64,000 nt of DNA from an uncultured delta proteobacterium (GTDB lineage: Bacteria; Myxococcota_A; Polyangia; Fen-1088). The translations under genes were made by a program, and so were the position numbers. The notes beneath the pieces were generated by a model, which did no database searches, was not told the origin of the DNA, and was given only the letters and a program-made list of their open reading frames with translations. The DNA lies in NCBI GenBank assembly GCA_963767925.1, contig CAVYGB010000006.1:380719-444718 (forward strand), written 5' to 3'. Shown piece after piece: positions 31,200 through 63,707 of the stretch. Positions within the stretch are counted from its first letter, which is position 1; each line of letters starts with the position of its first letter.

Positions 31200-31272
31200 C
31201 TCCGAAGGAGGGACTCGAACCCCCGACCCGGCGGTTAACAGCCGCCTGCTCTGCCAACTGAGCTACTTCGGA
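31200..31272 (-). tRNA. tRNA-Asn (GTT)
   Basis: TCCGAAG/CTTCGGA acceptor stem, GCTC/GAGC D-arm, GGCGG-CTGTTAA-CCGCC anticodon arm, TTCGAGT T-loop; CCA is not encoded (followed by CAA). Confidence 0.97.
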
Positions 31273-55382: not shown

Positions 55383-57320
<1,938 letters not shown>

Positions 57321-57330
57321 CGGCGACTAT

Positions 57331-57663
57331 GAAAAAAGAACGCGTCGGCGCCCCTGAGGCTGACGCGAATGTCAGAGTGCATGGGATAGGTTTGTTAGAT
57401 GCCCGACCACCTGTAACACGGAAACATCAGGATTTCAAAGAGATTGGCCCGAAACCGGGTCCCCCTGAAGGTGGGCACGCCGCTTGCTGATGTGGAGAGT
57501 AGCGGCGACGAACGGCAGTTATCACCGGACGTTGCTCCTCCTCCCACTTGAAAAAGCTTACAGGCCCCACGAATTTTCCATAGCCCAGCCTATCCTTTCC
57601 TTAGCTTGACGTGTAATTGACGAAGCCTCCCCGACCACTGGTCGCGGAGGCTTCGTCGTTTTT
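57331..57663. ncRNA. Candidate structured RNA (rng leader or divergent sRNA)
   Basis: At least five stems including a long-range GGATAGG/CCTATCC helix; terminator-like hairpins at both ends. Confidence 0.55.
57619..57663 (+). terminator. Intrinsic terminator-like hairpin
   Basis: GACGAAGCCTCC/GGAGGCTTCGTC 12-bp stem with inner CGACC/GGTCG, followed by TTTTT. Confidence 0.75.
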
Positions 57664-57854
57664 GTCCTGGTTGTAGTGCGGACTACAGGAAAATCGACCA
57701 GGGCTGCTCCCGAGGCCGGAAGATTTGCGCAAGATCGGCGCAAGATCGAGGGAAGACCGGCGCGAGACCGGCGGATGATCGCGGTCGGCCGGCCTCGCGG
57801 ACGCTGCGACCGGCGCCCGCGCAGGTGATCCGGGCGGCCGCGGCGGCCCCGGCG

Positions 57855-58676
57855 CTAGCGCAGGTGAACGGCGTAGGCGTAGACGAAGGCGCCCACGAAG
57901 AGGACGGCGTCGATCCGGTCGAGGATGCCGCCGTGGCCGGGGATGAGGCGGCCCGAGTCCTTGGCGCCGGCGGCCCGCTTGATCATCGACTCGAGGAGGT
58001 CGCCCGCCGGGCCGAGGATGCCGGCGGCACCACCTATGACAATGGCGTCAGTGGCGCTGAGGGCGGGAAAAAACGTAGCCCGGGCCACGAACATGAAGGC
58101 GACACCGGTCACCAGCCCACCTACCGCCCCCTCGATGGTCTTGCCCGGGGAGATGGCGGGGGCGAGCTTGTGGCGGCCGAGGGCCCGGCCGGTGAAGTAG
58201 GCCCCGGTGTCGTTGGCGAAGGTGACCGCCACCGCGGTTGTCACCCAGAGCGAGCCGTCGGCGAGATCGCGGTGCATGAGCGGCAGGCCCACCAGCAGGC
58301 CCCCTACATAGAAGATACCGAAGCCGGTAAGGGCCAGGCGCTGGATGGCGGAGGGCAGGTCTCCGCCGGCCGCGCGCTGGGAGAGCAGGACCGCCAGGGC
58401 GACGACCACCAGGGCGGCCATCGCCCACAGCAAGGCGTGCTGGGGGCGGAGGTAGACCGCGGCGGCGAAGGCGGTCCCCACCACCACCAGGAGGGCCCGG
58501 GCGCCGGCCCGGTCGGGGCCCAGGGTCAGGTTGCCGTATTCGGTGAGGGCCACCGCCACCGCGAGCAGGGCCAGCGCGCCGAACCCCCAGGGCTGGCGCC
58601 AGAAGACCAGCAAGGCCAGGAGCGGGAGCCCCACGACCGCCGACAGGACGCGGAGGAGGAAGTTGCTGGAGGCCAC
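57855..58676 (-). CDS. cdsA: Phosphatidate cytidylyltransferase
   Basis: DTGAYFTGR, ISPGKTIEG, DLLESMIKR...KDSG...PGHGGILDRID. Confidence 0.95.
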   Translation of the reverse strand: MASSNFLLRVLSAVVGLPLLALLVFWRQPWGFGALALLAVAVALTEYGNLTLGPDRAGARALLVVVGTAFAAAVYLRPQHALLWAMAALVVVALAVLLSQRAAGGDLPSAIQRLALTGFGIFYVGGLLVGLPLMHRDLADGSLWVTTAVAVTFANDTGAYFTGRALGRHKLAPAISPGKTIEGAVGGLVTGVAFMFVARATFFPALSATDAIVIGGAAGILGPAGDLLESMIKRAAGAKDSGRLIPGHGGILDRIDAVLFVGAFVYAYAVHLR

Positions 58677-58687
58677 GGGGGACGGTT

Positions 58688-59437
58688 CTAACCGTGGGTC
58701 CGGATCTGCTCGCGGGTGCGCCCGTAGCGGCGTTCGCGGCCGCGGTAGGACTCGAGCGCGGTCAGGAACTCCTGCTTTCCGAACTCGGGCCAGAGCGTCT
58801 CGGTGAAATACAGCTCGGCGTAGGCCGCCTCCCAGAGCAGGAAGTTCGAGAGGCGCACCTCGCCCGAGGTGCGGATGAGCAGGTCGAGCTGGGGCATGCC
58901 CCCGGTCTGGAGCATGGCCGAGAAGCGCTCCTCGCTGACGTCTTCGGGCTTGAGCGCCCCCCGGGAGGCCAGCTCGCACAGGGCCTGGGTTGTCGAGACG
59001 ATCGACTCGCGGCCCCCGTAAGACAGGGCCAGACAGAGGGTCATCGACCGGTTGGCGGCCGAGTCGCGCATCAGGGCCTCGAGGGGGTCGCGCACGAACT
59101 CGGGCAGGCGCTCGGCGTCGCCGATGGTGGTGAGGCGGATGGCGTTGTCCATGATCTCGGCGCGCTCCTCGATGAGAAAGTCGCGCAGGAGCTGCATCAG
59201 GGTGCCGACCTCGTCGGTGGGGCGCTGCCAGTTCTGGGCCGAGAAGGCGTAAAGGGTGAGGGCCCGCAGCCCCGCCTCCCGGGCGGCGCGGACGATGTGG
59301 CGGACCGACTTGGCCCCCTGGCGGTGGCCCTCCACCCGCGGCAGCCCTTTCCGCTGCGCCCAGCGACCGTTGCCGTCCATGATGATCGCAACGTGGCGCG
59401 GCAAGATCGCGGGCAAGCTCGCGGGATCTAGGGACAT
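58688..59437 (-). CDS. uppS: Undecaprenyl diphosphate synthase
   Basis: HVAIIMDGNGRWA, YAFSAQNW, SYGGR, LLIRTSGEVRLSNFLLW. Confidence 0.96.
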   Translation of the reverse strand: MSLDPASLPAILPRHVAIIMDGNGRWAQRKGLPRVEGHRQGAKSVRHIVRAAREAGLRALTLYAFSAQNWQRPTDEVGTLMQLLRDFLIEERAEIMDNAIRLTTIGDAERLPEFVRDPLEALMRDSAANRSMTLCLALSYGGRESIVSTTQALCELASRGALKPEDVSEERFSAMLQTGGMPQLDLLIRTSGEVRLSNFLLWEAAYAELYFTETLWPEFGKQEFLTALESYRGRERRYGRTREQIRTHG

Positions 59438-63054: not shown

Positions 63055-63279
63055 ATGTCACAGCATCAGAACCACACCACGTCCAAGTTCAACGGGATCA
63101 AGGTCTTCTCGGCGACCATGGCCCAGGAACGCGAGAACCTCGGCGAGAAGGTGACGGCCTGGATCCGCGAGCATCCAGCCCACCAGGTCGTGGACACGAT
63201 CGTGACGCAATCTTCGGACGAGGCCTTCCACTGTCTGGCGATCACGCTGTTCTTCTGGGAAGAGCGCCCGGCCAAGTAG
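63055..63279 (+). CDS. Small hypothetical protein (resembles a conserved myxobacterial family)
   Basis: FNGIKVFSATMAQERENLGE...TQSSDEAFHCLAITLF; purine-rich region upstream of the ATG. Confidence 0.75.
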   Translation: MSQHQNHTTSKFNGIKVFSATMAQERENLGEKVTAWIREHPAHQVVDTIVTQSSDEAFHCLAITLFFWEERPAK

Positions 63280-63346
63280 TTTTTCTCAGTGGCACGCCGG
63301 AGCCCGCTTGATGCGTGCCCCGGCGTGCATAGATTAGTAGATCAAA

Positions 63347-63704
63347 GGGGGCGAAATAGGTTCGACGGGGGACGCAAAGTTCATGTCGCGTGCCGAGGTG
63401 TCCGAGGCCTCGTATAAAAACGGACAAAACCATATCTGCGAACGACAACGCGTTCGCTCTGGCCGCCTAAACAGCGATAGCTAGACCACGACCCGGGGAG
63501 GCGCCCGTGGCCTCGGGAAGTGGGGACCTCGCGGGCTGGTGATCGCGCAACGTCTTTCGGCGCGGTCATGAGAAACAGGAAGGGCTGGTGTTCGGGACGC
63601 CTCGCCGGTGGGCCAACCCAAACACGAGACCAAAATCGCCGGATACGCACGTAGTGGCATGCTCCTAGCGCTTCCGGACCCGGGGGCAGTACCCGGCGCC
63701 TCCA
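63347..63704 (+). ncRNA. ssrA: tmRNA, tag ANDNAFALAA
   Basis: 5' GGGGGCG pairs with 3' CGCCTCC-A (G3.U70); TCGAC in the D-loop region; tag ORF at 63438-63470; upstream TTGATG-N16-TAGATT promoter. Confidence 0.96.
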
Positions 63705-63707
63705 CAG

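Follow-up and report, generated by a model that had tools for sequence, protein, structure and literature searches.

Our analysis of the spacer between rne and cdsA in an uncultured member of the Polyangia points, with good probability, to a stand-alone, sigma-54-driven small RNA (sRNA) gene accompanied by a palindromic enhancer and by the DNA of a probable divergent rne promoter. The initial annotation, drawn up from this sequence alone, had described a single structured plus-strand RNA of approximately 330 nt (57331-57663). That RNA is real, new, and on the right strand, but it was drawn about twice too long. In comparison with relatives, the 333 nt appear to consist of two parts, of which the 3' half is a conserved non-coding RNA and the 5' half (57327-57490) a control sequence operating at the DNA level. 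The proposed gene would occupy approximately 57499-57663 of the plus strand and would be transcribed from the sigma-54 promoter GGCAC-N5-TTGC at 57474-57487, activated from a palindromic enhancer site (57360-57375) inside the DNA of a short rne leader. Its RNA would comprise a 5' stem-loop, an exposed CU-rich tract, a loose domain with YUAGC/GCUUA words, and an intrinsic terminator. What is conserved from the sRNA promoter to the start codon of rne would then be signals in the DNA, with the enhancer site joined by a divergent promoter that probably serves rne. Divergent promoter DNA can thus pass for a large structured RNA when a single sequence is read.

The cdsA-rne spacer and its predicted RNA

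The source genome assembly (9.3 Mb, 13 contigs, completeness 84%) contains the window, i.e., the whole 64,000-nt stretch of DNA that was analyzed, with a G+C content of 69%. The RNase E/G gene rne (55383-57320, minus strand) encodes 645 aa with matches to Pfam RNase_E_G (E 8e-104) and RNase_E_G_Thio, and its upstream neighbor cdsA (57855-58979, minus strand) encodes a phosphatidate cytidylyltransferase (Pfam CTP_transf_1, E 9e-57); the spacer between these two minus-strand genes spans 57321-57854. Of 61 genomes belonging to the family, 57 yielded rne; 30 family loci were retrieved for comparison, and 28 of these kept the gene order cdsA to rne. Alignment A1, covering the 290 nt upstream of rne in 29 sequences, revealed sharp conserved blocks separated by variable sequence. 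On the plus strand, these are, in order, CTATGAAAAA; CTGAC-N6-GTCAG followed by GGTTCATGGG; GTAACACGGAA; TTCAA; GGCAC-N4-CTTGCT; and CTCCTCCTCCC. A hairpin, P0 (CACACCGG-loop-CCGGTGTG), comes next in most genera and is missing from the genus of the source genome.

The predicted sRNA of about 165 nt (57499-57663, plus strand) opens with stem-loop SL1 (57504-57536), in which a GGCGACG/CGUUGCU helix and an inner CGG/CCG stem were indicated by folding and by pairing among relatives. The adjoining CU-rich tract CUCCUCCUCCC (57535-57545), the candidate seed, contains TCCTCCC, which was invariant in the 17 sequences of alignment A2, and resembles an anti-Shine-Dalgarno sequence. It was present in 58 of 63 distinct loci and absent in five. 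A weakly structured 3' domain (57546-57618), recognized by 5-mer enrichment, carries GCUUA (57556-57560) and UAGCUUGACG (57602-57611). The intrinsic terminator (57619-57663), found by RNAfold and in relatives, is a GC-rich hairpin, GACGAAGCC...GGCUUCGUC, directly before G UUUUU. The initial annotation had already noted this terminator with TTTTT on the plus strand, and RNAfold confirmed it (stem 57619-57657, then G TTTTT to 57663); a simple terminator scan did not include it in its plus-strand list. What was right in the earlier description is thus a novel sRNA divergent from the RNase E/G gene and ending at this T-run; its length and 5' boundary required revision, with the start likely at approximately 57499, i.e., 12 +/- 3 nt after the -12 GC of the promoter, rather than at 57331. 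The RNA of the source genus (57497-57663) folded at -57.2 kcal/mol (z -3.93), with SL1 and the terminator separated by a long stretch of weak pairing; the CU tract was partly paired. In the 54 distinct 3' domains, the words TAGCC, GCTTA, CTTAG, AGCTT, and CCTAG occurred seven to nine times as often as expected (e.g., TAGCC 51 vs 5.7, GCTTA 48 vs 5.3), although these rows are related and their z-scores accordingly inflated. Each RNA carries two to four copies of such YUAGC/GCUUA words in the unstructured 3' domain. Five rne-linked loci (L103, L143, L145, L079, and L014) retained the palindrome, promoter, and terminator and lacked the CCUCC tract; their RNA bodies had diverged while the control region was unchanged.

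A covariance model, R1, was built from A2 and a hand-drawn structure (77 positions, 17 pairs). It yielded 68 matches in 95 sources, including the window at 57499-57559 on the plus strand (31.4 bits, E 1.6e-4). In alignment A3, which comprises 49 distinct rows taken from the R1 matches and, being fitted to R1, favors its own pairing and covariation figures, 96.2% of cells were paired, 12 of the 17 pairs had changed on both sides, and the covariation score reached 0.274, compared with 0.120 in shuffles (0 of 500 attaining 0.274) and at most 0.059 in slid controls; for SL1, helices 1 and 2 were paired in 92.8% and 95.7% of cells, and seven of eight pairs had changed on both sides. RNAalifold applied to the rne strand of A1 returned seven invariant pairs and no covariation. 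R1 matches occurred in 10 of 17 family genomes, with none in the remaining seven under stricter filters, and R1 found nothing in the 133 genomes that represented 29 further families of this class or in a phylum sample of 150. Each genome had one match, lying a few hundred bases from the rne match on the same contig. A search of the whole source genome returned nothing at E <= 1e-3; its own copy scores only 31 bits, in a genus without P0. By these matches, the sRNA family appears to be confined to one uncultured Polyangia family.

Base pairs, loops, and tails all bear on the strand. The first eight pairs of P0 (36 distinct sequences, 50 loci), read on the plus strand, comprised 269 Watson-Crick, 12 G.U, and 0 A.C pairs, and among 50 distinct terminator hairpins the ratio of G.U to A.C was 36:11 on the same strand; the earlier remark that non-Watson-Crick pairs are G.U on the plus strand therefore holds among relatives. 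P0 tetraloops were of the GNRA or UNCG type in 12 of 20 cases on the plus strand and in 1 of 20 on the other. In 27 of 28 loci, a GC-rich hairpin occurred at a distance of 280-445 nt from the rne ATG, its T-rich tail confined to the plus strand, and at least four T in the 9 nt after the terminator stem were counted in 35 of 50 cases on the plus strand vs 1 of 50 on the other. The G.U pairs, GNRA/UNCG loops, and T-tails indicate that the RNA is read from the plus strand, and the region 57499-57663 accordingly has the properties expected of a conserved non-coding RNA on that strand. By minimum free energy (MFE) over the whole region, the rne strand came out ahead in the distal part (the sRNA body) at 21 of 28 loci, and the plus strand in the rne-proximal part at 25 of 28; this comparison was set aside as a strand test because the strand richer in G and U wins regardless. 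No conserved open reading frame was found inside the sRNA among 28 relatives. A small plus-strand reading frame starting from ATGAAAAA (57329-57490) was rejected, as the palindrome falls in different frames in the source locus and in L037 and the frame has no Pfam match.

Downstream of the terminator, the source genus has an extra, very GC-rich spacer of about 190 nt before the cdsA stop codon (57664-57854), which includes a near-tandem repeat of GCGCAAGATCG at about 57727-57750. The terminator and the cdsA stop adjoin each other directly in most other genera.

Predicted promoter and enhancer DNA upstream of the RNA

The sigma-54 promoter consensus resembles TGGCAC-N5-TTGCW, with GG and GC 10 bp apart; an activator site in helical phase lies some 80-150 bp upstream, and transcription begins roughly 12 nt past the GC. 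The core GGCAC-N5-TTGC at 57474-57487 on the plus strand, with the -24 GG at 57474-57475 and the -12 GC at 57486-57487, has exactly this GG-N10-GC spacing. GGCA[CT]-N4-NTTGC was matched in 28 of 28 loci, and GGCA and TTGCT were invariant in the 28 sequences of alignment A4; the base before GG was C or G in most rne-linked loci, vs T in the consensus. The source genome encodes rpoN (PF04552, 143.8 bits) and has 68 matches to Sigma54_activat (PF00158), none of which lies inside the window. The DNA-binding domain of rpoN (G000:C8:278763-279240) was matched in two pieces (model positions 2-120 and 115-160) that overlap but lie in different frames, which could reflect a frameshift or an assembly error. 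Genome-wide, GGCAC-N5-TTGC showed no enrichment, with 61 matches vs 105 for the N4 spacing, a count that we regard as uninformative. A search across the phylum with GGCAY-N5-TTGC-N35-65-TCCTCCC was abandoned as unspecific, since it hit 97 of 401 genomes, many of the hits being promoters before Leu-rich reading frames.

The palindrome CTGACGCGAATGTCAG (57360-57375), lying about 125-140 bp upstream of the sRNA start, is the candidate site for a bacterial enhancer-binding protein (bEBP). Its stem bases (CTGAC-N6-GTCAG) never covary. In the 23 of 28 loci that could be parsed, the palindrome lay 102-106, 114-117, or 125 bp from the GG, and TTCAA lay 30-31 bp from it in 13 loci and 40-42 bp in 10. 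The distance from the palindrome to TA was 52-56 nt in 22 loci and 64 nt in one, and that from TA to TTCAA was 20 nt in 22 of the 23 parsed loci, with no gaps between the two blocks in A1 or A4; a gap block of 10-12 columns is visible in A4. Because the spacers change in steps of about 10 bp, or one helical turn, they point to a face-of-helix constraint on DNA rather than to RNA helices. The GG/GC spacing, the presence of rpoN and activators in the genome, and a candidate upstream site 102-125 bp before the GG in helical phase are all features of sigma-54 promoters, and the sRNA is apparently driven by one.

The same arrangement was sought in one genome per species across 185,579 species with the pattern CTGACNNNAATGTCAG-N86-110-GGCAY-N5-TTGC, for which about three chance matches were estimated. 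Of the 75 loci recovered, 56 had an rne N-terminus divergently upstream and 19 had no rne; in 13 of these 19, GGCA was preceded by the canonical T, which the pattern did not demand. Four non-rne loci (L095, L099, L118, and L121) shared the arrangement and a near-identical downstream coding sequence, and the gene behind the promoter of L118 belongs to the Crp/Fnr family (cNMP_binding and HTH_Crp_2; L159:8019-8921). These four loci, from Polyangia metagenome-assembled genomes (MAGs), have the same palindrome and a canonical TGGCAC-N5-TTGC before a gene; in the genome of L118 (L159), the Crp/Fnr-family gene is followed by DUF924 and alanine racemase. No activator gene was found within +/-8 kb of the Crp-family locus that shares the enhancer. 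In three other loci, L144 (=L147:1501-1800), L138 (=L148), and L131, the palindrome and promoter precede short non-coding stretches, which end in strong terminators in L144 and L131 and in a T-run without a clear hairpin in L138. The stretch in L138, a Kofleriaceae MAG, is CU-rich with UAGC/CUUAGC repeats, and none of the three had an Rfam match. They are possibly further sRNA genes, unrelated or distantly related, under the same activator. L144, from an 'Archangium sp.' MAG, was considered as a pxr locus and rejected, its upstream gene encoding an NAD-dependent epimerase and not an activator. A looser form of the palindrome had three occurrences only in the source genome. Since it recurs before sigma-54 cores at several loci, the palindrome behaves as an activator site in Myxococcota, presumably one used at several sigma-54 promoters of the phylum. 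These four loci with the coding sequence shared by L118 point to a wider regulon of one enhancer-binding protein, and the enhancer word CTGAC-N3-AATGTCAG would mark this regulon in several Myxococcota lineages.

On the rne side of the spacer, a candidate rne promoter occupies 57410-57438 of the minus strand, with a -35 TTGAAA (57438-57433), a 17-nt spacer, and TGn with TACAGG (57415-57410), i.e., the geometry of a -35/extended -10 promoter. Its blocks were absent from the non-rne loci that share the palindrome. A sigma-70 scan called no site at this position, and the last -10 base was never T in the sequences read. We consider 57410-57438 a probable divergent rne promoter; alternatively, TTCAA could be an IHF-like site serving the sigma-54 promoter. 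The short rne leader that would result (57408-57321, minus strand; about 85 nt) showed no folding beyond that of shuffles (z -0.61). Immediately ahead of the rne AUG, the terminator scan flagged a terminator-like hairpin with a U-run (UUCUUUUUUCAUAG) at 57327-57367 on the minus strand. This hairpin was only 58% paired across the family, and the hairpin before the U-run gave z between -1.8 and +0.8 in seven loci. The U-run itself (UUUUUCAUAG) lay 5-30 nt before the rne AUG in 23 of 29 family loci, at a near-constant distance from the palindrome and a varying distance from the ATG (A4), and it may serve as an attenuator, an RNase E site, or enhancer DNA. In 28 of 29 family loci, rne had no Shine-Dalgarno-like core. 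Duplex prediction between the sRNA and the rne leader in 28 loci gave a mean z of 0.13, i.e., no signal.

Rival readings and possible function

Transcript data came from one soil metatranscriptome, in which 0.04 of the words recurred; it gave six contigs, only one of them from a close relative. This contig (316 nt, depth 3, strandless) begins within rne, covers the two proposed promoters, and extends as far as about 57602. It fits a longer transcript or DNA carry-over rather than two separate short transcripts, and it would allow the rne strand to be transcribed at greater length, in which case the sRNA would be antisense to that transcript.

The continuous plus-strand RNA of the initial annotation, spanning 57331-57663, closed by GGAUAGGUU/AGCCUAUCC, and viewed as an antisense or divergent sRNA, now appears highly improbable. 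All of the helices named for it were found where they had been placed, and the plus strand of 57331-57663 folded at -131.7 kcal/mol (z -5.38, an energy matched by none of 100 shuffles; z -3.12 for the minus strand), which is more than chance would give. G.U polarity likewise indicates the plus strand, the contig covers the region, and the rne-proximal part folds better on the plus strand in 25 of 28 loci, a preference confounded by base composition. The single fold of about 330 nt did not stand, as its inner helices are not conserved: TGCCC/GGGCA, ACCT/AGGT, TCAGG/CCTGA, GGCCCG/CGGGTC, and the hairpin at 57341-57367 were paired in 49.4% of cells in 28 family sequences (A4), compared with 46.6% in shuffles and 34-43% in slid controls, a count that excludes the closing helix as a whole, the 3' arm of which lies outside A4. 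By eye, a same-genus relative loses two of the five TCAGG/CCTGA pairs without compensation, and in its closing helix a U-to-C change is uncompensated unless one base bulges. The enclosing helices lie over the promoter and enhancer DNA, the inner ones show no covariation, and the blocks beneath them match sigma-54 and extended -10 geometries with spacers stepping by about 10 bp. Moreover, the same palindrome and sigma-54 core occur where there is no such RNA, and the promoter of a 330-nt transcript would have to sit within the rne coding sequence. Another reading, which we regard as very unlikely, takes the conserved region for a long minus-strand leader that controls the rne mRNA in cis, by attenuation or by RNase E autoregulation. 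The spacer is indeed conserved and long, the distance of its blocks from the rne ATG varies little (216-251 nt), the hairpin and the U-run lie on the rne strand before the AUG, and the contig bridges leader and coding sequence. However, the covarying helices give G.U and not A.C only on the opposite strand (12:0 and 36:11), as do the GNRA/UNCG loops and T-tails; RNAalifold on the rne strand gave only its seven pairs without covariation, the short putative leader did not outperform shuffles, and Rfam rne5 and rne-II had no match at E <= 10. The suggestion of an autoregulatory leader analogous to the E. coli rne 5' UTR found no support, the conserved structure being on the strand opposite to rne. 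Antisense action on the rne leader, proposed alongside it, would need an rne transcript starting upstream of about 57499, which the strandless, low-depth contig permits and does not prove.

For the stand-alone sigma-54-driven sRNA, the position of the invariant CU tract between SL1 and P0 suggests a natural seed for ribosome-binding-site pairing. The RNA would act in trans, switched on by an enhancer-binding protein, and the tract would pair with purine-rich, GGAGG-like Shine-Dalgarno sites in mRNAs. Alternatively, the same RNA might serve through its YUAGC/GCUUA words as a protein sponge or decoy, with RNase E as a conceivable partner, rather than through pairing of the CU tract. The two to four word copies per RNA and their excess over expectation (TAGCC 51 vs 5.7, GCTTA 48 vs 5.3) speak for this, as do the constant adjacency of the RNA to rne and the CU-rich sequence and UAGC repeats at the unrelated locus L138, which has the same enhancer and promoter. 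On the other hand, the word enrichment was counted on related sequences, and the CU tract is partly paired in the fold of the source genus, so that neither element is clearly the active one; we judge a sponge unlikely. An equally unlikely proposal is that the sRNA and rne form one coupled switch, in which an activator bound at the enhancer within transcribed rne leader DNA would turn on the sRNA while obstructing or remodeling rne transcription, and the sRNA words would titrate RNase E or another RNA-binding protein, or the sRNA would act antisense on read-through cdsA-rne transcripts. If true, this switch would constitute a sigma-54-controlled regulator of the cell's main RNA-decay enzyme.

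Relation to known regulatory RNAs

Sigma-54-dependent sRNAs are exemplified by CrcZ in Pseudomonas, GlmY in Enterobacteria, and Qrr1-4 in Vibrio, whose -24/-12 promoters need an enhancer-binding protein bound approximately 100-150 bp upstream (CbrB, GlrR, and LuxO, respectively). CrcZ carries repeated short motifs. Sponges of the CsrB/CrcZ type have several copies of a short protein-binding motif in unpaired regions, and the rne-adjacent sRNA would resemble them if its repeated words bound a protein. CrcZ, GlmY, and Qrr1-4 differ from it in phylum, sequence, activator, and motif, and none of them was matched in Rfam searches. Two known elements, the 5' UTR of E. coli rne (Rfam rne5, RF00040) and the rne-II motif of Pseudomonas, share with the rne-adjacent sRNA a conserved sequence immediately in front of an RNase E gene. 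Both, however, act in cis and are formed by the rne strand, whereas the structure conserved here belongs to the other strand; neither was matched by cmscan at E <= 10.

The earlier statement that the RNA matches no known family was borne out by Rfam. At gathering scores, a scan of the whole window returned a tmRNA and one tRNA only; at E <= 10, the sole cmscan matches in 57200-57900 were chance ones to narK and sR53, and a scan of eight related loci gave nothing relevant. No RNA related to Pxr, which is recognized by its three-stem fold and by conservation of the SL1 and SL2 sequences, was found in any of these three scans.

Within the same phylum, Pxr of Myxococcus xanthus and other Cystobacterineae offers the closest precedent. 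According to two papers, Pxr is an sRNA for which a sigma-54 promoter has been predicted, together with an enhancer region upstream of it; it lies directly downstream of the NtrC-like regulator gene pxrR/nla19, and is reported there only from the suborder Cystobacterineae (PMC5684412, PMC5568312). It is also the sole functionally studied myxobacterial sRNA described in those texts (PMC5684412, PMC5568312). As far as these descriptions go, both RNAs are stand-alone, combine a predicted sigma-54 promoter with a region for enhancer binding upstream of it, and contain several stem-loops as well as an intrinsic terminator. As described, they are set apart by context and distribution: Pxr adjoins pxrR/nla19 and occurs in Cystobacterineae, whereas the rne-adjacent sRNA is flanked by cdsA and rne, in a window that lacks an activator gene, and occurs in an uncultured Polyangia family. 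Our literature search found no report of an sRNA beside rne in Polyangia, or of any Polyangia sRNA. The rne-adjacent RNA is a previously undescribed sRNA without an Rfam family and, by its promoter, apparently a second sigma-54-dependent sRNA family in the phylum. It gives Rfam-style annotation a new family in which the layout of promoter and enhancer is readable, the candidate seed is conserved, and the location next to the RNase E gene is strictly maintained. Elsewhere in the window, the tmRNA gene is a standard one (63347-63707, plus strand, 132.9 bits), overlapped by a weaker 'permuted tmRNA' match at 63186-63470, and the tRNA gene lies at 31200-31272 on the minus strand.
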